DNA from: Patescibacteria group bacterium UBA2196
GTDB taxonomy: Bacteria; Patescibacteriota; Patescibacteriia; UBA2196
Reading direction: 5' to 3'
NCBI GenBank assembly: GCA_002328025.1
Contig: DCVE01000014.1
Span: 69,882 to 133,881 of the forward strand
DNA length: 64,000 nucleotides
The notes beneath the pieces were generated by a model. That model worked only from the letters and a program-made list of their open reading frames with translations, was not told the DNA's origin and ran no database searches. Below are positions 248 through 51,340 of this stretch, in pieces (the first letter of the stretch is position 1; each line of letters begins with the position of its first letter). The position numbers and the translations under genes are program-made.

Positions 248-901
248 ATGCAGAAAAAAATTGAATTACGAGCAGTCGCCAGAGTCGCTTTGGGCAAAGA
301 TAATGGTGGTTTAAGAACTGACAATTTAGTGCCGGCAGTTATTTATGGTCATGATTTTGCCAATCAAAACATTGCGGTGAAATATAGTGATTTAGAAAAA
401 GCTTACGCCGAGGGCGGTGAGTCTGTTTTGCTTGATTTAATAGTGGATGATGGTGTTAGTCATAAGGTTATCATTCATGCTATAGCCCGTGATCCTTTAA
501 AGGAACGTTTTATACACGTGGATTTTTATAAAGTCAAAATGGATGAAAAAATTAAAACCGATGTGGCCTTGGAATTCGTTGGTGAAGCCCCAGCTGTCAA
601 AGAGTTAGGTGGATCTTTGATTAAGGCCATGGATCATATAGAAATAGAATGTTTGCCTGGTGATTTAATACAAACTTTGGTTATTGATTTATCCAAGTTG
701 AAAAATTTTGGTGATTCAATTCGAGTCGCCGATCTTGATATCCCAGCCAACATCACCTTGTTATCAGCTAAAGACGCAACTATTGTTTTAGTTGAAGAAA
801 CCAAAGCAGCCACTCTTGAGGAAACTTCTACACCAACAGCTGCTCCGACAGGGGGTGAAAAAGTTGATGCTGTGGAAGAAGAAAAAAATAAAGAAAATTA
901 A
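248..901 (+). CDS. rplY: 50S ribosomal protein L25 / general stress protein Ctc
   Basis: 217 aa. N-terminal L25 5S-rRNA-binding beta-barrel (IELRAVARVALGK...NLVPAVIYG) plus the long acidic C-terminal tail typical of Ctc-type L25. Confidence 0.8.
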   Translation: MQKKIELRAVARVALGKDNGGLRTDNLVPAVIYGHDFANQNIAVKYSDLEKAYAEGGESVLLDLIVDDGVSHKVIIHAIARDPLKERFIHVDFYKVKMDEKIKTDVALEFVGEAPAVKELGGSLIKAMDHIEIECLPGDLIQTLVIDLSKLKNFGDSIRVADLDIPANITLLSAKDATIVLVEETKAATLEETSTPTAAPTGGEKVDAVEEEKNKEN

Positions 902-934
902 TTTTTATATCTTTTATTTTAGCTCACCCATCTT

Positions 935-1438
935 ATGTTGTTTGACAATAAAAAAAAATCCCGAGGGTTTACTCTAATTGAACTTTTGGTGGTTATTTCT
1001 ATTATGGGCTTGTTGTCTGTATTGGCCATGGCGGCTTTACAAAATGCACGACAAAAAAGTCGTGATGCACGCCGTTTGGGCGACATGAAACAAATTAAAA
1101 CTGCTATTGAGCTTTATTTTGATGCCAATGGTTTTTATCCTCAATGTGCTGGCAACAGTCTCTGCACCAGTACTGGCTATCAGGGAAATATTCAAGCGTT
1201 GGCCATAAGTCCTACCTATATGTTAAACATACCAATTGATCCAAAAAACAGCAGTACTGTTTATGGTTATTATTATGCTCGTGGTTATAAACAAACTGGC
1301 GCCACTTCTTTACAAGCCACAGGTTTAATTACAGATTATGTATTAGCCACTCGTCTGGAAATTCCAAACAGCGCTGCCACATTAATTCCAAATAATATTT
1401 GGGATAATGCTAGTCTAAATTTTTTGTTGGGAAATTAA
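935..1438 (+). CDS. type IV pilin / GspG-like pseudopilin with class III signal peptide
   Basis: Short basic leader then G|FTLIELLVVISIMGLL (prepilin peptidase site with Glu+5). Followed by the GspG/PilA-like block ...IELYFDANGFYP. Confidence 0.7.
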   Translation: MLFDNKKKSRGFTLIELLVVISIMGLLSVLAMAALQNARQKSRDARRLGDMKQIKTAIELYFDANGFYPQCAGNSLCTSTGYQGNIQALAISPTYMLNIPIDPKNSSTVYGYYYARGYKQTGATSLQATGLITDYVLATRLEIPNSAATLIPNNIWDNASLNFLLGN

Positions 1439-1449
1439 AATAAAAATCA

Positions 1450-1965
1450 ATGTCATTACAAGAACAAAACCGGTTAGCCGGTTTTAGGTTGCAGAAAGTT
1501 TTTGTTGCAGTAGTGATTGTCTTCCTAATGGTTTTATCAACCGCTTCTTTTGATGTTATACAAGCCAAAGTTCGAGATCAAAAACGTAAAGCTGATTTAC
1601 AACAAATCAGTCTGGCTTTACAGCTCTATTTTGATAATTATCAAAAATTTCCACCAGTTGAAGATAATGATTGGTCTGGTTGGGACTTAAGTTTTGAGTT
1701 TGATGGCTCCAAACAAACATTTTTAAGCAAACTTTCACAAACTGGTTACATTGATCGTGTTCCTGTTGACCCACTAAATAATTCCAGCTATCTCTATCGT
1801 TATAATTATTATCCGGCTGGTTCTTTTGGGTGTAGTAAAGCTTTTTTTATTTTGCAGGCGCTTAATTTTGAAGGAAGTGAAAAAAAACACGGTTCTGGTT
1901 TTTGTCCCGAGTATAATTTTGTTGACATGGCTTTTAATGGCTATACCATTCAAATCTTTGAATGA
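1450..1965 (+). CDS. pilin-like protein with degenerate prepilin motif (minor pilin/pseudopilin-like)
   Basis: Has ...LAG|FRLQKVFVAVVIVFLMVL plus QLYFDNYQKFPP, parallel to the upstream pilin, but Lys instead of Glu at +5. Ends with a Cys-containing C-terminus. Confidence 0.45.
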   Translation: MSLQEQNRLAGFRLQKVFVAVVIVFLMVLSTASFDVIQAKVRDQKRKADLQQISLALQLYFDNYQKFPPVEDNDWSGWDLSFEFDGSKQTFLSKLSQTGYIDRVPVDPLNNSSYLYRYNYYPAGSFGCSKAFFILQALNFEGSEKKHGSGFCPEYNFVDMAFNGYTIQIFE

Positions 1966-3041
1966 TTTATAAGATAATGAAAAATAATATTTTTAAAAAC
2001 AAAAAAAATATATTTGCCAGTCTTGGGCTGGTTTTTTTAATTTTAATTGGTGGAATTTTATTTTTTTATAATTTAAAACAAAAAACAACAGTCAACTTTG
2101 AAGTTTTAACCACGCAAAATAATGACGCAAAAGACTGTCAGATTAAAAATCAACTTAACGGAGTTTGTTGGTTGGAAGAACAAAAAAATCAATGGCCGGT
2201 GGCCATTATGATCGATAATCATCCTGACGCTTGGCCACAGTTTGGGCTAAGTAAGGCGTCCTTGGTTTACAGCACACTAGTTGAAGGTGGCGCCACTCGC
2301 ATTATGGCGGTTTTTTCTGTCACTGATGCCTTAAAAATTGGACCAGTTAGAAGCGCACGACCTTATTTTTTAACTTGGGCCAAAGAAATTGATGCTCTTT
2401 ACGGTCATTCTGGCGGTTCCTTTGAGGCTATTGAAAAAATAAAAAAATATGAAATTATTAATTTAGAAGAAGTCAGTAGTTATGGCCCTCTTTATTTTTA
2501 TCGAGATAAAAGTAAGACTGCCCCACACAATCTTTTTACAACCGCTAAAAATTTATATCTGGCGCTAAGTGATTTTAGTTTAGCCAGTTCCACACCGAGT
2601 TTTGTGGCCTGGAAATTTTTAACCGACGCCAATATGACTACACAGCCGACGTCAAATATTAATCTTGATTATTCCGCTCTAGATTTGTTTGATGTTGCTT
2701 ATAGTTACAACACCACGACTGATATGTATCTGCGTTTTCAAAATAAAAAACCACACCTTGATGCTTTGAATGACAAACAAATTGCGGCTCAAACAGTTAT
2801 CGTTCAGTTTGTACCAGAAGAAATACACCTGGATGCGGCTGACCGATTACAAATTGATACATTGGGAGAGGGCCGAGCTTTAATTTTTTATCACGGGAAA
2901 CAATTGGTTGCTCGTTGGAATAAAAAAACAGTTATTGATCGTACAATTTTTTATACCGAAAACAATACAGAAGTTGTTTTTCCACCGGGTAATATTTGGG
3001 TGGAAGTTGTACCAGGAAAAAGAGATGTCCGGGTGGATTAA
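1962..3041 (+). CDS. DUF3048-like (YerB family) membrane-anchored secreted protein
   Basis: N-terminal TM helix. The motif AIMIDNHPDAWPQFGLSKASLVY...GGATRIMAVF recalls the DUF3048 N-domain signature (...NxPxARPQSGL...). Recalled from memory, not verified. Confidence 0.4.
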   Translation: MIYKIMKNNIFKNKKNIFASLGLVFLILIGGILFFYNLKQKTTVNFEVLTTQNNDAKDCQIKNQLNGVCWLEEQKNQWPVAIMIDNHPDAWPQFGLSKASLVYSTLVEGGATRIMAVFSVTDALKIGPVRSARPYFLTWAKEIDALYGHSGGSFEAIEKIKKYEIINLEEVSSYGPLYFYRDKSKTAPHNLFTTAKNLYLALSDFSLASSTPSFVAWKFLTDANMTTQPTSNINLDYSALDLFDVAYSYNTTTDMYLRFQNKKPHLDALNDKQIAAQTVIVQFVPEEIHLDAADRLQIDTLGEGRALIFYHGKQLVARWNKKTVIDRTIFYTENNTEVVFPPGNIWVEVVPGKRDVRVD

Positions 3042-7933: not shown

Positions 7934-8977
7934 ATGCTCAATGATAAAAAGTTAGTTAAAAAATATAAGCACATTAAAATCGCTATTAATGGTTTTGGCC
8001 GCATTGGACGTCAATCTTTTAAAATTGCTCTAAAAAATAAAAAAGTTGAAGTTGTGGCAATAAATGATTTAGGCAGTATTGAAAGTTTGGCTTATTTATT
8101 AAAACATGATTCGGTTTATGGTTATTACCAGGAACAAATTTCTTTTGATAGTCAACACTTGATAGTTAATGGCAAAAAAATCATTGTCCTAAATGAAAAG
8201 GAACCCACAAAGCTTCCTTGGAAAAAAATGCAAGTGGATGTGGTTTTAGAATGCACTGGTTTTTTTACTGATGCGGTTGGAGCTGGACAACACCTTAAGG
8301 CTGGTGCTAAAAAGGTAGTTATTTCAGCACCGGGCAAGGATGATGTTGAGCACACTTATGTTTTAGGAACGCTAGAAACGCAGAAAAAAATTAAGCAAGG
8401 TAATATAATTTCCAATGCTTCTTGCACGACCAACTGTGTTGCACCAGTCATTCAGATTTTAGAAGATGTTTTTGGCATAGAAAAAGCCTTATTAAATACC
8501 TCGCATGCCTACACTGCTAGCCAAGGTTTGGTGGATGGTCCCAGTAGAAAAGATTTACGCGAAGGCAGGGCGGCAGCTATAAATCAAGTACCAGCGGCCA
8601 CTGGAGCTGCTAAAGCCACAGCCAAGGTCATTCCTGCTTTGAAGGGACTTTTTGACGGTATCGCTATTCGGGTGCCTGTGCTGTGTGGTTCAATTTCAGA
8701 TATAACTTGTGTGCTTAAAAAAGAGGTCACAGTTGAACAAATTAATAATGCTTTTCGTCAAGCAACAAAAAAACCATTATTTAAAGATATTTTAGCAGTT
8801 TCTGAAGAACCATTGGTTTCAACAGATATTCTTGGTGACACACACTCTGCTATTGTGGATTTGTCTTTAACCCGAGTGGTCGGTGGTAATTTAGTTAAAG
8901 TTATGGCTTGGTACGATAATGAATGGGGTTATTCTTGTCGTTTGGTTGAAATGGCGATTGCGGTGATGGGGAAGTAA
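7934..8977 (+). CDS. gap: glyceraldehyde-3-phosphate dehydrogenase
   Basis: NAD-binding INGFGRIGR and the catalytic SNASCTTNCVAP motif. Confidence 0.9.
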   Translation: MLNDKKLVKKYKHIKIAINGFGRIGRQSFKIALKNKKVEVVAINDLGSIESLAYLLKHDSVYGYYQEQISFDSQHLIVNGKKIIVLNEKEPTKLPWKKMQVDVVLECTGFFTDAVGAGQHLKAGAKKVVISAPGKDDVEHTYVLGTLETQKKIKQGNIISNASCTTNCVAPVIQILEDVFGIEKALLNTSHAYTASQGLVDGPSRKDLREGRAAAINQVPAATGAAKATAKVIPALKGLFDGIAIRVPVLCGSISDITCVLKKEVTVEQINNAFRQATKKPLFKDILAVSEEPLVSTDILGDTHSAIVDLSLTRVVGGNLVKVMAWYDNEWGYSCRLVEMAIAVMGK

Positions 8978-13054: not shown

Positions 13055-13597
13055 TCAGCCCTTGCGTCCTGCAATGTTAAGGACGAGGTTTCTGCGCCGC
13101 GATCCCGGTGGCAGAAAAAACTCCAGTACCATCATGCAGAACTCCCAGATCCAGTATTTCTTCTGGTACTGGTCTGGGCTGGAAAAGGTAAAAGTGTACC
13201 AGCCGTCTTTGTTTTCGGCTTTCCACTTTCTCTTTAGACGCAAGACCAAATGTGGCTTTAACGCCACAACGGTTAATTTTTTGAAGCCTCTTTCGCGGCA
13301 TATGCGGTTGGCCTCCGCAATTTCGTCCGCCGAGTCACGGGCGGCCATGTCCGCCCCCACTATAATTTTCACGTCGTAGTCCAGATTCATCATCCGCAGG
13401 GCCTCTTTTTTGTATATTTGGGCCTCAGACCGTGTGTCAGACGGGACAGTCCGCCCCACGGTCATGATAAGCGGACAGTAGCATTTCGTCCGGGCTTTTT
13501 TAATGCCCCAACGAAGCACATCAAGGCCTCTTGCTGGGACAATTGAGTCCTTTGGGCAATAGGTGTGCACCATAACCGCCTCGGTTACTCTCTTCAT
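13055..13597 (-). CDS. DUF218 (YdcF/SanA/ElyC-like) domain protein encoded on a GC-rich island
   Basis: The blocks PLIMTVGRT..., SEAQIYKKEALRMMNLDYDVKII and GADMAARDSADEIAEANRI...LTVVALKPHLVLRLK follow the order of E. coli YdcF motifs. Canonical SD GGAGGAtcacATG. Local GC is much higher than the flanks. Confidence 0.45.
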   Translation of the reverse strand: MKRVTEAVMVHTYCPKDSIVPARGLDVLRWGIKKARTKCYCPLIMTVGRTVPSDTRSEAQIYKKEALRMMNLDYDVKIIVGADMAARDSADEIAEANRICRERGFKKLTVVALKPHLVLRLKRKWKAENKDGWYTFTFSSPDQYQKKYWIWEFCMMVLEFFLPPGSRRRNLVLNIAGRKG

Positions 13598-13747
13598 GTG
13601 ATCCTCCCGGGCTTTTTTGCCTGATTTTCAAAATTCAATGTTCACAATTTATAACGCGATTATAGCTTATTATTATTATTATGTCAATGTTTAATAGGTT
13701 TTTTTTGCTATAATTAGCTTAATTAATCTTTTAGCCTGAAAATATAA

Positions 13748-37312: not shown

Positions 37313-38044
37313 ATGAACTATCAAAATCCAAAGACCTCAATTATTATTAGAACTAGAAATGAAGATAATACTTTTGAAGAAGTTTTGTCTTGTATAGAAA
37401 AACAAACGTATCAAGATTTTGAAATTATTGTTGTAGATGATAATTCAACGGATAAAACACAGCAAATTGCTAAAGAACACGACTGTAAAATTGTGCTGAT
37501 ACCAGAAGGAAAATTTTCACACCCATACTCATGCAACTTGGGCGCTCAAAATGCACAAGGTAAATATCTGGTGTATCTTAATGGTCACGCACTGCCAATT
37601 TCTGACACCTGGTTGGCTGATGGTTTAAAAAATTTTAAAGATAAAAAAATAGCTGGCATCTATGCTTTTGTTATAGCCAGAAAAAATAGTACTTTAGCTG
37701 ATAAGATACTTTATGATGTTGTGGGTAGAACCATTGGTGCATTAAAATTTAAAGCCAATAAAAAAATGACTGGTGTTCTAGGCACAACCAACGCCATTAT
37801 TAGGAAAGATTTATGGAATCAATATCATTTCAATGAAAAATTTAATAGCGGTTGGGGCGGTGAAGACACAAATTGGGCCCGATATTTTATGGAACGTGGA
37901 TATTGTATAGTTCACGAACCAAAGTTTAGAGTTAGGCATTCACACAATTTAAGCTGGAAAGATTTTTTTTGGCAATTAAAAAATTGGCTAAAAATGGCTT
38001 ATCCGGTTCTTGGTATTCCTGAGAAACAAAGAAAGAATGTATAA
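37313..38044 (+). CDS. family 2 glycosyltransferase
   Basis: ...IIIRTRNE...FEIIVVDDNSTDKT (GT-A fold DxD region). Confidence 0.7.
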   Translation: MNYQNPKTSIIIRTRNEDNTFEEVLSCIEKQTYQDFEIIVVDDNSTDKTQQIAKEHDCKIVLIPEGKFSHPYSCNLGAQNAQGKYLVYLNGHALPISDTWLADGLKNFKDKKIAGIYAFVIARKNSTLADKILYDVVGRTIGALKFKANKKMTGVLGTTNAIIRKDLWNQYHFNEKFNSGWGGEDTNWARYFMERGYCIVHEPKFRVRHSHNLSWKDFFWQLKNWLKMAYPVLGIPEKQRKNV

Positions 38045-38050
38045 AAAGCA

Positions 38051-39049
38051 ATGAAAATTCACTACAAAATTTTTATTGGTGTGCTAATTATTTTTACTAT
38101 TTTTTTAATAATAGCCAATTTTAATTTTGGTTCTGATAATAAAATAATTTGGGGTGCTACATTTTCTAAACTGCAAGCCGAAGAATTGGGCATAAACTGG
38201 GTAATTGCCTATGGCGCCATGATTGATGAATTAAATTTAAAAACTGTCCGTTTGCCAGTCTATTGGCCGGATGTAGAAAAAAGCCCAGGAGTTTTTGATT
38301 TTTCAGCCTATGATTGGATGATTGAAAAGGCTTTAAAAAATGATGTTGAAATAGTGCCGGTATTGGGTCGGCGCGTGCCGCGTTGGCCAGAATGTCATAC
38401 GCCAGAGATGTATAAAAATCTAACCGCAGATGAAATAAAAATAAAAATTTTCGCTTTGCTTAAAGCTGAGGTGGAACATTTTAAAAAATATTCCAATATC
38501 AAAAAATGGCAGCTTGATAATGAACCGTTTGCCGATTTTTTTGGTCAGTGTCCTTTGGGCGAAGAAAGCTTGGTACGCGAAGAAGTGGCCTTGGTGCGTT
38601 CGCTTGATAAGCGTCCAGTTATGATTACCGAATCTGGTGAACTTTCCTTATGGTTTAAAGGTGCAAAAATTGGTGATTTTTTAGGTGTTTCCATGTATCG
38701 ACAAACTTGGAATAAAAGGTGGGGCTGGTTTAACTATCCTTTGCCACCAGCTTTTTATTATTTTAAAGCCAAAATAGTAAAACTTTTTACACCCGTTAAA
38801 AAAATTATCAACACTGAGCTGCAAGTGGAGCCCTGGGCCATTGATAATAATTTAACAAAGATGGACTTATTTGATCAATTTTATTCCATGGATTTAGCTC
38901 AAGTAAAAAGCAATGTCAAGTTTGCCCGCTCTGCTGGATTGGATGAAATTTATCTTTGGGGTGTGGAATGGTGGTGGTGGTTGGGTGAAAAAAAGGGGGA
39001 TTGGAGTTTTTGGGAATATGGTAAAACAATAAGTTCAGATAATTTTTAA
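38051..39049 (+). CDS. clan GH-A (GH5/cellulase-like TIM-barrel) glycoside hydrolase, membrane-anchored
   Basis: N-terminal TM, ...WQLDNEP (the NEP acid/base motif of GH-A enzymes) and ...VMITESG (candidate nucleophile Glu). Confidence 0.45.
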   Translation: MKIHYKIFIGVLIIFTIFLIIANFNFGSDNKIIWGATFSKLQAEELGINWVIAYGAMIDELNLKTVRLPVYWPDVEKSPGVFDFSAYDWMIEKALKNDVEIVPVLGRRVPRWPECHTPEMYKNLTADEIKIKIFALLKAEVEHFKKYSNIKKWQLDNEPFADFFGQCPLGEESLVREEVALVRSLDKRPVMITESGELSLWFKGAKIGDFLGVSMYRQTWNKRWGWFNYPLPPAFYYFKAKIVKLFTPVKKIINTELQVEPWAIDNNLTKMDLFDQFYSMDLAQVKSNVKFARSAGLDEIYLWGVEWWWWLGEKKGDWSFWEYGKTISSDNF

Positions 39050-39079
39050 TTAAATAGATAAAATAATTACATAATACGG

Positions 39080-39120
39080 GACAAAAATAAAACACCCCCG
39101 AAAAGATTGATGGGGGTGTC
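39080..39120 (-). terminator. terminator for the minus-strand GC-island gene
   Basis: Stem acaccccc / gggggtgt (8 bp). On the minus strand it is followed by TTTTATTTTTGT. Confidence 0.5.
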
Positions 39121-39156
39121 GTTGTTTTATGGTTAGAACGGAACGGGTAGTTGTAG

Positions 39157-39552
39157 CTACATCATTGGGTTTGCCCAGCCAGTGATTTCAACCTTCCAGC
39201 CGTGTAGTTCTATAACGACTGGAAACTTCTTTTGAAAACCCTCGGGCGTGGTGTAAGCAAAGTAATTGCTATACACCTCCAATATCACCAGACTCTCTGT
39301 GAGCCGGTGGACGTTGGCATAGTCACGGGCCACCAGATGCCCGTTTTTCAAAATATTCACCATACCGCTGCCGTCACAACAGGCGGTGACTGGCACAGGG
39401 ACCTCCATGGTGATGTACCACCCTATATTAACGTGGAGACTGAGCTCATTGAACCCAGCCTTAGTAATCGGGGTGGTGGCAGTGGTTTGGGCATTGGGGG
39501 CGGCCACGAATAGAGCCAGCAGCAGAACACACAACAATGCGAATTTTTTCAT
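39157..39552 (-). CDS. small secreted protein of unknown function on a GC-rich island next to tRNA-Pro
   Basis: Signal peptide MKKFALLCVLLLALFVAAPNAQ. 131 aa with vicinal Cys (TACCDG). Canonical SD GGAGGatgtcATG. Local GC is far above the flanks. Confidence 0.45.
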   Translation of the reverse strand: MKKFALLCVLLLALFVAAPNAQTTATTPITKAGFNELSLHVNIGWYITMEVPVPVTACCDGSGMVNILKNGHLVARDYANVHRLTESLVILEVYSNYFAYTTPEGFQKKFPVVIELHGWKVEITGWANPMM

Positions 39553-39766
39553 GACATCCTCCGAACAAATAGATTATGCAACGATTCCACGAATTATCTT
39601 TAGAATAACAGAGAGAGAGATTTGTCAAGAGTAGTTGGTAATGTGCACACACAATTGAGATTTTGTGTAAAATTAGATAAATTTTGGATATTGGTGATGT
39701 TTTAAAAACACATAAAACTAGTTTGTTTTTTTTAATAAATTAAGGTAAAATTTAAAGGTAAATTAA

Positions 39767-39840
39767 CGGGATATAGCGCAGTTGGCTAGCGCGCGTCGTT
39801 CGGGACGACGAGGTCGCCGGTTCGAGTCCGGCTATCCCGA
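39767..39840 (+). tRNA. tRNA-Pro (anticodon CGG)
   Basis: Manual cloverleaf: acceptor CGGGATA/TATCCCG, D-arm GCGC-AGTTGGCTA-GCGC, anticodon arm CGTCG-TTCGGGA-CGACG (CGG at 34-36), variable loop AGGTC, T-arm GCCGG-TTCGAGT-CCGGC, discriminator A. 74 nt, no encoded CCA. Confidence 0.85.
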
Positions 39841-39910
39841 TAAAACTGTTTAATATAATTAATCTTGCTAAAAATATTTTTTAAATTTTTTGGCAAGAAC
39901 AAAGATACAT

Positions 39911-40048
39911 ATGGAAGATGAACAAAAAAAATGCACAGCCTGTGGTACCATAATTACTGACGAAACAAAATGCACCTGTAGTGAAAACTTGTGCGCTGGT
40001 TGTTGCACTTGTGACCCAGATTGCGCTTGTGGTTGTCAGGATAAATAG
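39911..40048 (+). CDS. 45-aa cysteine-rich (metallothionein-like) small protein
   Basis: MEDEQKKCTACGTIITDETKCTCSENLCAGCCTCDPDCACGCQDK: 11 Cys in 45 aa as CxxC, CxC, CxxCCxC and CxCxC clusters. Ends 7 nt before rarA. Not in the ORF track (<60 aa). Overlaps an antisense track ORF. Confidence 0.4.
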   Translation: MEDEQKKCTACGTIITDETKCTCSENLCAGCCTCDPDCACGCQDK

Positions 40049-40054
40049 ATTTCT

Positions 40055-41311
40055 ATGGATCTTTTTGACGAACACTATCAAAAAGACTTAGCCGCAAAAG
40101 CGCCGCTGGCCGATCGTCTTCGTCCAGCGGCGCTAGTTGATTATGTGGGTCAAGAGGAAATTGTCGGTCCAGGTTCTTTGTTGCGGCAAGCCATAGAAAA
40201 CGACGAATTACCATCCATGATTTTGTGGGGCCCGCCCGGCAGCGGCAAAACCACCCTGGCGCGTATCATTGCTCAATTTACCAACTCTTTTTTTGTAGAA
40301 ATTTCTGCTGTTACTTCTGGTGTTAAAGATTTGCGCGAAATAATTACTCAAGCAACTAATAAACGTAAACTTAATAATCAACGCACCATTCTTTTTGTTG
40401 ATGAAATCCATCGCTGGAACAAGGCTCAGCAAGATGGGCTTTTGCCCTTGGTAGAGAAGGGAATTATTACTTTAATTGGCGCCACCACTGAAAACCCATC
40501 TTTTGAAGTCATTGCACCTTTATTATCACGCTCACGAGTATATGTATTAAAGCCACTATCAATACCCAATCTGCAAACAATTATTAAACGGGCTTTAAGT
40601 AATTCAGAAAAAGGATTGGCCGAGTATCAAGCACAGTTGGATCCGCAAGCTGAAGTATTTTTATTGCAATCCAGTAATGGTGATGCGCGTGTTATTTTAA
40701 ATGCTTTAGAAATTGCTGTTAAAAATACCAACCCCAATTCTCAAGGAAAAAGACTAGTTAATAAAAAAATAATCGCTGAAGCATTACAGCAGCAAACCAT
40801 GCTCTATGACCGTGCGGGCGAAGAACACTACAATATTATTTCTGCTTTACATAAATCCATGCGCGGCAATAATCCGCACGCAGCTGTTTATTGGTTAGCT
40901 AGAATGTTAGAAGCTGGGGAAGATCCATTATATATCGCACGGCGTTTGGTGCGTTTTGCTGCCGAAGATGTGGGATTGGCTGACAATTTTGCTGTCGTTT
41001 TAGCCAACGCTATTTTTGATGCTTGTCATAAACTGGGTATGCCAGAATGTAATGTTCATCTCACTCAGTTGGTTATTTATTTAGCACAAGCTAAAAAAAG
41101 CATCACAACTTATCAAGCTTATGGCGCTGCACAAAAGGACGTCAAAGAATTAGGCTATTTGCCCGTGCCACTGCATTTGCGCAATGCTCCAACCAAACTA
41201 ATGAAAGACCTAAATTACGGTAAAGATTATAAATATACCCCCCTGGAAAATTCACCAGACCAAGAGTATTTCCCAGAAGAATTAAAGGGTAGAAAATATT
41301 ACAGTGAATAA
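40055..41311 (+). CDS. rarA: replication-associated recombination protein A (AAA+ ATPase RarA/MgsA)
   Basis: ILWGPPGSGKTTLARIIA Walker A, LFVDEIHRWNKAQQD Walker B/sensor, and the MgsA C-terminal domains. Confidence 0.9.
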   Translation: MDLFDEHYQKDLAAKAPLADRLRPAALVDYVGQEEIVGPGSLLRQAIENDELPSMILWGPPGSGKTTLARIIAQFTNSFFVEISAVTSGVKDLREIITQATNKRKLNNQRTILFVDEIHRWNKAQQDGLLPLVEKGIITLIGATTENPSFEVIAPLLSRSRVYVLKPLSIPNLQTIIKRALSNSEKGLAEYQAQLDPQAEVFLLQSSNGDARVILNALEIAVKNTNPNSQGKRLVNKKIIAEALQQQTMLYDRAGEEHYNIISALHKSMRGNNPHAAVYWLARMLEAGEDPLYIARRLVRFAAEDVGLADNFAVVLANAIFDACHKLGMPECNVHLTQLVIYLAQAKKSITTYQAYGAAQKDVKELGYLPVPLHLRNAPTKLMKDLNYGKDYKYTPLENSPDQEYFPEELKGRKYYSE

Positions 41312-41397
41312 TTTTTGAATTAAAAGGACAATATTAAGGGATAAAATGGCTTTAAAAGGCTGTTTTTTGTTTCTACAACCCATGTGGATAAGTATCA

Positions 41398-41426
41398 TTG
41401 ACATAATTAGCTATATGTGATATTAT
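41398..41426 (+). promoter_or_regulatory. sigma70-like promoter (TTGACA-N17-TATTAT) for the GT4 gene
   Basis: TTGACA 41398-41403 and TATTAT 41421-41426. Confidence 0.4.
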
Positions 41427-41466
41427 TTTATATTACTAATTATAAATAATAATAATTCATTAGCAT

Positions 41467-42675
41467 ATGTTAAAAATCGCTTATATTGGTCAAAAAGGTA
41501 TTCTTAACCCTTCTGGTGGAGGTGTAGAAACTCATGTGGAAGAACTTAGCGTACGTATGGCTAAGAAGGGTTTTGATGTCTTTTTATATACTCGACCGCA
41601 CTACACACCCAAAGAATACAAAAAATATGAAGGCGTTAATTTAATTAGCTTACCTTCTATATACACCAAACACCTGGACGCTGGTTCGCATACTTTTTTA
41701 GCTATTTTGCATGCTATAAAAAATAAAGTTGATATAATTCATATTCACGGTATTGGACCGGCTTGGCTTTGTTTTATTCCCAGAATAATTGCTCCCAAAA
41801 TTAAAGTTATAGTCACTGCTCACAGTGAAGATTGGGAACATAAAAAATGGGGTGTTTTTGCTCAGTTTATGCTTAAGTTTGGCGCGCTGATGTCGGCTGT
41901 TTTTGCCCACGAAGTTATTACTGTTTCCAAAAAATTGCAAAAAAGATATCTAACATTATATAAACGTTCCATAACTTTAATTCCCAACGGTGTGACTACG
42001 CGTCAAAACAGCGATATAGATGATCGTTTAATTAAACAATTCAATTTAACCAGAGAAAAATATATTTTGACAGTTTCGCGTCTGGTGAGACACAAGGGTA
42101 TCCACTATTTAGTTGAGGCTTTTAAAAAAGTTAAACTTAATCCCGAATTTGCTGATTTTAAATTAGTCATTGTTGGTCAAACCTCTTTTACAGATGATTA
42201 TTACGAATTTTTAAAAAGTTTAGTTAATGGTCGCAATGACATAATTTTTACCGGTGGCCAACGTGGTGAAATGTTGGAACAATTGTATACTCATAGCTAC
42301 ATGTATGTTTCTCCATCTCAATCTGAGGGCCTTTCCATCTCTCTTTTGGAAGCTATGGCTTATGCTAAACCAGTTTTAGTATCTGATATCTCAGCCAATG
42401 CTGATTTGGTGGCTGGTGATGCTAGTTTGGGTGGGGTGGGTTTTATTTTTCGCAACACGGATATTAATGATTTAACTTATAAAATGGTTTTACTTTTAAC
42501 GCACGCACAGGTGGCTAGAAAGGTTGGCAAGAAAGCTAGAAGTTATGTTAAAACTTATTATAATTGGGAAGATGTTGTGGATAGAATTACCAAGATTTAC
42601 AAAAGCTTGGTTTTAATTAAAGATAAAACCAAAAAGATAAAATCCGTCAGTTCTGAAAAGGTAGCCTGGGCTTAA
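41467..42675 (+). CDS. family 4 (GT-B) glycosyltransferase
   Basis: The N-terminus ...IGQKGILNPSGGGVETHVEEL and the C-terminal EX7E-type region (SQSEGLSISLLEAMAY) fit the GT4 fold. Confidence 0.75.
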   Translation: MLKIAYIGQKGILNPSGGGVETHVEELSVRMAKKGFDVFLYTRPHYTPKEYKKYEGVNLISLPSIYTKHLDAGSHTFLAILHAIKNKVDIIHIHGIGPAWLCFIPRIIAPKIKVIVTAHSEDWEHKKWGVFAQFMLKFGALMSAVFAHEVITVSKKLQKRYLTLYKRSITLIPNGVTTRQNSDIDDRLIKQFNLTREKYILTVSRLVRHKGIHYLVEAFKKVKLNPEFADFKLVIVGQTSFTDDYYEFLKSLVNGRNDIIFTGGQRGEMLEQLYTHSYMYVSPSQSEGLSISLLEAMAYAKPVLVSDISANADLVAGDASLGGVGFIFRNTDINDLTYKMVLLLTHAQVARKVGKKARSYVKTYYNWEDVVDRITKIYKSLVLIKDKTKKIKSVSSEKVAWA

Positions 42676-50792: not shown

Positions 50793-51212
50793 ATGACTAA
50801 GAATGATTTTTTTCAACAAGTCAGAGATTTGAATTTACCATTAGGCAAGTATGCAATATTTGGCAGTGCGCCAATGGTGGTTAGAGGATTAAAAGAATAT
50901 CGTGACATAGATATGGTTGTTTCTGAAGATATTTGGGAAGAACTTAGTAAAAAAGGCTGGCCTATTAAATATTCTGAATTTGGCAATCCATTTCTTTGTT
51001 ATAAAGAAATGGAAATAGGCAAAGATTTTTGGCAGCCTGGCGTCTGGAATATGAGAGAATTAATTAATGAGGCAGATGTTATTGAAGGCTTGCCATTTGT
51101 TAAATTAGAGAGAGTGTTGGAATATAAAAAAATGCTTGGCAGAGAAAAAGATTTGGAAGATGTAAAAAAAATAGAAAATTTTTTACAAGCGCAGAATTTA
51201 ATTAATAAATAA
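50793..51212 (+). CDS. small Pol-beta-superfamily nucleotidyltransferase (Lnu/ANT-like)
   Basis: hG[GS]x(9-13)DhDh signature: AIFGSAPMVVRGLKEYRDIDMVV. Size and motif recall lincosamide/aminoglycoside nucleotidyltransferases. Confidence 0.4.
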   Translation: MTKNDFFQQVRDLNLPLGKYAIFGSAPMVVRGLKEYRDIDMVVSEDIWEELSKKGWPIKYSEFGNPFLCYKEMEIGKDFWQPGVWNMRELINEADVIEGLPFVKLERVLEYKKMLGREKDLEDVKKIENFLQAQNLINK

Positions 51213-51232
51213 AAAGCCTGCTAGGCAGGCTT
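51203..51232 (-). terminator. hairpin terminator oriented for the minus strand
   Basis: Stem aagcctgc / gcaggctt (8 bp, 3-nt loop). The T-run (TTTTTATTTATT) is on the minus strand only. Confidence 0.4.
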
Positions 51233-51340
51233 AAGCGGGTGGTGGAACATTTTAAATCAATCCCAACCTTTGGGCAGCGACTTCCCATTCCCGCGGTGTC
51301 GGTTTAGACTTTTTTGCCATAATTCCTCCACATTAATGGG

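Follow-up and report, generated by a model that had tools for sequence, protein, structure and literature searches.

A Shine-Dalgarno-led, GC-rich gene cassette near tRNA-Pro(CGG) of a Patescibacteria genome is probably an old acquisition encoding a predicted exported protein

Positions 39078 to 39628 on the minus strand of the window, that is, the whole 64,000-nt stretch of DNA analyzed here, hold a self-contained monocistronic gene cassette with its own putative promoter, Shine-Dalgarno (SD) sequence, coding sequence (CDS), and terminator-like hairpin (Table 1). We regard this unit as probably an anciently acquired single-gene islet that encodes a Sec-exported protein of the binding type and has been kept by vertical descent. 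The window has a GC content of 35.5% and carries nearly all of its genes on the plus strand; tRNA-Pro(CGG) is the sole tRNA found in it (ARAGORN; Rfam 66 bits). The minus-strand 131-aa protein that an earlier note on this DNA had read from the sequence was recovered as an ORF between this tRNA and the gene of a 332-aa, membrane-anchored, GH-like protein, with which the 131-aa gene is convergent. The window sequence is also present on one 281-kb ENA contig and three Logan contigs. Its conserved neighbour gene assigns it to the Patescibacteria (CPR). Its closest GTDB species representative is L006 ('bacterium AMR_MDS_2570'), with 92% aa identity in a flanking gene, followed by L007, a Candidatus Kuenenbacteria MAG (63%), and L008, a 'Patescibacteria group' MAG (61%).

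Table 1. Features of the 131-aa gene unit and its tRNA side in the window
Feature	Position	Strand	Remarks
Terminator-like hairpin + T-run	39078..39119	-	intrinsic-terminator type; between 332-aa gene and 131-aa gene
CDS, 131-aa precursor	39157..39552	-	ATG 39552..39550, TAG 39159..39157
Mature domain, ~110 aa	39160..39489	-	12.3 kDa, pI ~6, predicted all-beta
Predicted Sec signal peptide MKKFALLCVLLLALFVAAPNA	39490..39552	-	cleavage presumably before Q22
AT-rich spacer, 214 bp	39553..39766		5' UTR + promoter of gene; unusually conserved
Shine-Dalgarno GGAGG	39558..39562	-	5 nt before ATG; kept in all three orthologous loci
Putative promoter	39600..39628	-	TTGACA 39628..39623, 17-nt spacer, TTCTAA 39605..39600
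Divergent candidate tRNA promoter	39723..39751	+	TTGTTT, 17 nt, TAAAAT; inside 214-bp spacer
tRNA-Pro(CGG)	39767..39840	+	uninterrupted, unduplicated; 100% identical in L006

Neither the promoter nor the terminator was called by a consensus scan; with a poor -10 element and an over-long loop, both assignments rest on direct reading and conservation. The promoter is putative because of its weak -10 element, and the promoter block is identical or nearly so in L006 and in L001, a contig from a further sister species. The terminator-like hairpin (39119..39092; ACACCCCC, a 12-nt loop, GGGGGTGT) has an 8-bp G+C stem and a dG of -17 kcal/mol (RNAfold), runs directly into the T-run TTTATTTTTG at 39091..39082 on the minus strand, and is identical in L001 and L006, which bears out the earlier reading of a terminator belonging to the gene itself; the scan missed it because its loop exceeds 8 nt. 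The 214-bp spacer is 95.6% identical to that of L006; the rarA-GT4 intergenic region reaches only 76%, and flanking DNA as a whole 82-86%. Indeed, the promoter, UTR, and terminator flanks are all conserved above the CDS, and such non-coding conservation argues for regulated, functional expression.

The base composition of the gene was evaluated within the set of 61 window ORFs that do not overlap one another and encode 90 aa or more. The ORF has 50.5% GC (0.52, 0.38, and 0.62 at the three codon positions), and its GC3 of 0.621 stands against 0.289 +/- 0.047 in 59 other ORFs (z = 7.0) and 0.25-0.35 in its neighbours. GC3 exceeds 0.6 in only two of the 61 ORFs, this one and 13055..13597 (-). The strong enrichment described earlier was thus confirmed (50.5% GC in the CDS vs 35.5% in the window), but the GC-rich block spans ~470 bp (~39092..39562) rather than ~650 bp, and the AT-rich spacer (14-38% GC) keeps it from abutting the tRNA. 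GC is raised in C- and G-ending codons alike, and the genes for DnaK, SecA, MreB, and ValRS show native codon usage, which together argues against a simple expression-linked codon bias.

The translation signals deviate likewise. GGAGG occurs at -20..-4 in a mere two of the 61 ORFs, both GC-rich and on the minus strand, and any 4-mer SD core in only five. The leaders of native genes are rich in A/T, and many have a TATAAT-like box only 10-20 nt ahead of the start, a short distance that suggests very short or leaderless native mRNAs. The native genes of the window appear to lack SD sequences, as do those of L006, L007, and L008, which were also inspected; L006, L008, and the contigs L020 and L030 show the same contrast, with SD on orphan genes only. 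Literature searches yielded nothing relevant to the locus, either on how CPR use SD sequences or on imported GC-rich genes in them. The canonical GGAGG noted earlier is real and rare, and the 131-aa gene is a genuine outlier in composition and translation signals, consistent with the foreign origin that had been proposed for it.

Protein searches among 5.8e9 clusters and 1.8e9 representatives retrieved only four family members, none matching a known family: the window protein, P0002 (61% identity; L001), P0005 (58%; L006 and many contigs), and the distant P0003 (28-30%; L020). The searches covered proteins, JGI metagenomes, IMG/VR, phages, and plasmids, and the JGI scan added one more copy of P0005 and nothing else. 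P0002 and P0005 come from sister species and occupy the same slot as the window gene, between the 332-aa gene and tRNA-Pro; their genes have 46% and 49% GC (GC3 0.53 and 0.61), whereas the loci around them have 34-35%. L007 and L008 lack the gene, although both have the flanking gene. The synteny comparison proposed earlier thus placed the gene in the same slot in two relatives and found it missing from the next two. The same gene, at the same locus and with similar GC, in several relatives had been named as an argument against foreignness if there were no compositional anomaly; the recurrence was found, and so was the anomaly.

Synonymous divergence of the 131-aa gene (dS 0.64-0.89) resembles that of the flanking genes (0.27-0.84), so vertical descent since the common ancestor suffices as an explanation, in keeping with the old insertion suggested before. 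Its dN/dS of 0.27-0.30, vs 0.03-0.13 for most neighbours, reveals purifying selection about fivefold weaker than on those genes. The protein is 58-62% identical between species and the neighbouring proteins 90-94%; the EamA neighbour evolves similarly fast. Polarisation of changes on the L001 and L006 branches with the window as outgroup, by parsimony, which is unreliable at such divergence, yielded 34 GC>AT vs 22 AT>GC changes in the 131-aa gene and 22 vs 38 in a neighbour gene (Fisher p = 0.015). This modest GC>AT excess fits slow amelioration. By a rough two-state estimate, however, the observed GC3 excess appears greater than neutral decay over such dS would leave: amelioration by neutral change alone does not readily explain a GC3 of ~0.6 after dS ~0.6-0.9, and GC may therefore be selected.

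According to the explanation that we favor, a small clade of Kuenenbacteria-like Patescibacteria would owe the cassette to a lateral transfer into one of its ancestors, the donor being an unsampled, GC-richer, SD-using source, and the cassette would then have been inherited vertically under slow amelioration. It keeps a foreign-type GC3 (0.53-0.62 vs ~0.29) and a GGAGG SD among SD-less native genes. Since neither a donor lineage nor a homolog outside AT-rich contigs was found, transfer is deduced from composition and signals only. The gene shares with ameliorating lateral ORFans a narrow distribution, deviant GC3, a fast-evolving protein, and the GC>AT excess; unlike them, it retains its high GC3 at that divergence and its SD in an SD-less genome, and conservation is higher in its regulatory flanks than in the CDS.

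On a rival view, which we judge unlikely, the gene would be native, its GC-rich codons, SD, and flanks being under selection for very high or specially regulated expression. This view gains from the GC3 of 0.53-0.66 maintained in all four family members despite a long stay in AT-rich genomes, from the strong conservation of promoter, UTR, SD, and terminator, and from the modest size of the GC>AT excess. On the other hand, the genes for DnaK, SecA, and MreB, taken as proxies for well-expressed genes, have AT-rich codons and no SD; G-ending codons are enriched as well as C-ending ones; the gene is missing from the next relatives, L007 and L008; and the SD is common to unrelated orphans, namely the gene at 13055..13597 (-), the gene of a 447-aa protein in L020, and the ORFs in the L008 slot described below. 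The P0003 gene combines a GC3 of 0.66, vs 0.25-0.27 in the other genes of its contig, with a perfect TTGACA-N17-TATAAT promoter and an SD; a GC-rich member in yet another AT-rich contig fits repeated import or selection. P0003's other neighbours are not homologs of those in the window.

The location of the gene had earlier been taken to point to integration at the tRNA, a classic target of mobile elements. The gene lies on the 5' side of tRNA-Pro, 214 bp away, and no direct-repeat family involving the tRNA (39767..39840) was detected within 37500..41500, a local form of the genome-wide repeat search that the earlier note had proposed. The interval from the 332-aa gene to rarA contains no integrase or recombinase ORF in any of four loci (window, L001, L006, and L008), in line with the earlier impression that neither integrase nor repeats are evident; Pfam annotation of the called neighbouring genes revealed no recombinase family, and no mobile-element homologs were confirmed in IMG/VR, INPHARED phages, or PLSDB. 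In L008, the flanks are kept (332-like gene, tRNA-Pro, small Cys-rich ORF, rarA), and the slot holds 1.9 kb of unrelated ORFs that include a 140-aa signal-peptide protein and small basic proteins, with a strong SD on three ORFs and on a further 79-aa ORF. These slot ORFs have GC3 below that of native L008 genes and no Pfam or PHROG match, and the 140-aa secreted protein, considered as a candidate relative of the 131-aa protein, is not a homolog. L007 has neither the 131-aa gene nor a tRNA after the 332-aa gene. Such differing content marks the slot as a site of gene turnover.

These data bear on the possibility that the gene is a remnant of an integrase-mediated island in tRNA-Pro, from which integrase and att repeats have since been lost. 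As in tRNA-associated islands such as pathogenicity islands and ICEs, composition is atypical, a tRNA adjoins, and slot occupancy varies, with different SD-bearing orphan ORFs in L008. Unlike those islands, which target the 3' end of tRNAs, the unit is a single gene of ~0.55 kb on the 5' side, separated from the tRNA by a conserved 214-bp spacer and inherited vertically across three species; it comes with no integrase or recombinase ORF in any of the four slots examined, no mobility genes, no att repeat or direct repeat involving the tRNA, and no phage, plasmid, or viral-contig homologs. We consider an island remnant distinctly unlikely and retain the acquired islet as the preferred reading. 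As a separate observation in L008, ~120-150 nt just upstream of tRNA-Pro (~8740..8862, +) have 52-57% GC and end in a hairpin plus T-run; this segment, which contains no ORF of at least 50 aa and matched nothing in Rfam at E <= 0.1, may represent a small RNA of a kind not yet described.

The N-terminus of the 131-aa protein (MKKFALLCVLLLALFVAAPNA, followed by Q) is signal-peptide-like by inspection, as the earlier note had held: a Lys-Lys n-region precedes a 15-residue hydrophobic core and a small-x-small motif (PNA before Q). The aligned cleavage place reads ANA before Q in the orthologs and ATA before A in P0003, and the signal-peptide pattern is common to all four family members despite low identity. 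No lipobox, C-terminal or membrane anchor, or sorting motif is visible in the 131 residues; the Cys at position 8 lies outside a lipobox context and is not conserved. The mature domain is conserved in its C-terminal third (YS[ND]YF...P...G...ITGW) and variable in the middle, as revealed by alignments. The vicinal cysteines highlighted earlier are indeed present, but their positions are not conserved (L001 has CC 20 residues later, L006 two separated Cys, and P0003 none), so that a functional role is not supported; the pair sits in a lower-confidence loop of the structural model.

AlphaFold2 (AF2) modeling with the four mature sequences predicted seven strands and one short helix (pLDDT 83, pTM 0.75), while a run with the full-length protein plus two sequences was unusable (pLDDT 45). 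Foldseek retrieved no convincing analog of the model: the best TM scores were 0.40 (PDB) and 0.43 (BFVD), all E values exceeded 0.03, and the top matches were generic Ig-like sandwiches (TEAD, IrmA, MHC-like). Scans of the protein and its homologs with Pfam, NCBIfam, PHROGs, and PADLOC gave nothing meaningful, the only PHROG match being to the signal-peptide region (E 0.003), and a PDB sequence profile search returned signal-peptide noise alone. The 131-aa protein resembles small secreted proteins with an Ig-like/FNIII-like beta-sandwich, such as Escherichia coli IrmA (PDB 5ek5), in its size (~110 aa), its predicted signal peptide, and its predicted all-beta, sandwich-like fold. Nevertheless, the TM score to IrmA and to the TEAD YAP-binding domain is only 0.3-0.4 with E > 0.03, short of 0.5, and low TM together with no sequence similarity does not support membership in this class. 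A weak HMM match (E 4.9e-4) joined the family to a 1720-aa repeat protein, presumably Cna_B-like, through a shared V-x-L-x-x-dG-K-x-V. Cna_B/prealbumin-like domains are parts of Gram-positive surface proteins, and the likeness to them is confined to this weak motif; the assignment was rejected, given an hhalign probability of 2.9% over 11 residues and no Pfam Cna_B in any of the four members.

From these features we propose that the precursor would leave the cytoplasm by the Sec route and lose its first 21 residues to signal peptidase I, and that cleavage would release a soluble, beta-sandwich-like domain of ~12 kDa outside the cell. There the domain might serve in binding, whether on the cell surface or at the host/environment interface, the conserved C-terminal core supporting a fast-changing central surface. 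The identification of the 131-aa protein as an extracellular binding module is thus a tentative prediction, with the chances leaning against it. The effector-like role raised in the earlier note found neither support nor contradiction. Being small, predicted to be secreted, and fast-evolving, with variable cysteines and a gene convergent with that of the membrane-anchored GH-like protein, the product could, instead of serving in binding or adhesion, be a toxin, a bacteriocin, or an inhibitor of enzymes. We find this improbable: the gene is monocistronic, with no adjacent immunity, processing, or export gene; PADLOC, Pfam, and NCBIfam offer no match; and no homolog of the 332-aa protein adjoins P0003. 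For want of such a homolog among the neighbours of P0003, a functional tie to the GH-like protein was likewise rejected.

The 131-codon ORF is a real protein-coding gene under purifying selection. Its annotated frame has the lowest dN/dS of the six (0.30, vs 0.41-0.55 for the mirror antisense frame and 1.16-1.57 for the remaining four), and indels relative to the two orthologs are all multiples of three (3, 6, and 12 nt). GC-rich segments of AT-rich genomes are often RNA genes, and long shadow ORFs occur here on both strands, which would suit a structured non-coding RNA or a non-functional ORF; the frame and indel patterns, the lack of any Rfam match to the block even at E <= 1, and a signal-peptide architecture kept in a homolog of only 28-30% identity make this very improbable. 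An assembly chimera or a contaminating fragment from a GC-richer organism is scarcely credible, even for metagenome-derived sequence in which several contigs break at the tRNA, because at least four independent assemblies contain the gene and its flanks in identical form (ENA, Logan, and JGI assemblies carry it), same-slot orthologs occur in many others, and the gene is joined on either side to contiguous, conserved AT-rich DNA.

CPR/Patescibacteria are thought to be host-attached, yet of the factors that they secrete or display on the surface, few are known. With few relatives, conserved, regulated, and predicted to be exported, the 131-aa protein is a candidate factor for the CPR-host interface. 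An SD on imported but not on native genes could furthermore serve as a simple marker of foreign genes in CPR genomes. A laterally acquired orphan gene is of an ordinary kind; the SD/GC contrast and the conserved flanks make follow-up reasonable, not urgent. A much bolder view, to which we give little credence, is that SD-less Patescibacteria carry a distinct class of imported cassettes (consensus -35/-10, GGAGG SD, deviant CDS, terminator), inserted without integrase into preferred slots, for example 5' of tRNA-Pro(CGG), whose deviance would be kept for privileged translation; the 131-aa protein would then be a secreted episymbiosis factor with a new fold.

Several further elements were observed in the window and on related contigs. 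The second GC-rich orphan gene, 13055..13597 (-), encodes 180 or 172 aa without a signal peptide. It shares with the 131-aa gene a high GC3 (0.63), a GGAGGAT SD (GGGAGGAT), and the minus strand, in line with what the earlier note said of a 13 kb island, and has a perfect TTGACA-N17-TATAAT promoter (~13657..13685) and a terminator-like hairpin. Its product lacks Pfam, NCBIfam, PHROG, and PADLOC matches, and a search of 5.8e9 proteins turned up a single homolog, P0007 (58% identity), encoded in another context (L030) by a gene that likewise has an SD, with a consensus-like promoter before it and a terminator-like hairpin after it. A third minus-strand GGAGG plus ATG lies at 51212..51329, in a gap between plus-strand genes, where a 22-aa ORF (MAKKSKPTPREWEVAAQRLGLI) is followed by a GC hairpin and a T-run.

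Following the P0003 gene on L020, positions 651..1994 (+) are SD-led and GC-enriched (46.5%, vs ~30% for other genes of the contig) and encode a secreted protein of 447 aa that contains FlgD_ig and, for type IX secretion (T9SS), a C-terminal sorting domain; one would not expect a T9SS tail in a genome of the CPR type. The ortholog-bearing contigs L001, L023-L026, and L028 stop ~215-260 nt upstream of the gene, the first bases of L001 being tRNA-Pro; as the window and L006 have this tRNA in 100% identical form, the contigs probably end where assembly broke at a repeat that co-occurring strains have in common. In the cell-envelope cluster near the locus, which is otherwise collinear, the GT2 glycosyltransferase at 37313..38044 (+) of the window is replaced in both sister species by an unrelated 211-aa SAM methyltransferase (L001 1755..2390, L006 5357..5992), a clean gene swap. 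Directly after tRNA-Pro and before rarA, a 47-aa ORF (39905..40048, +) contains 13 Cys with CxxC-type spacing; it gave no Pfam match, is kept in L006 (93% aa identity, dN/dS 0.03) and recognisable in L008, and may encode a small metal-binding protein.
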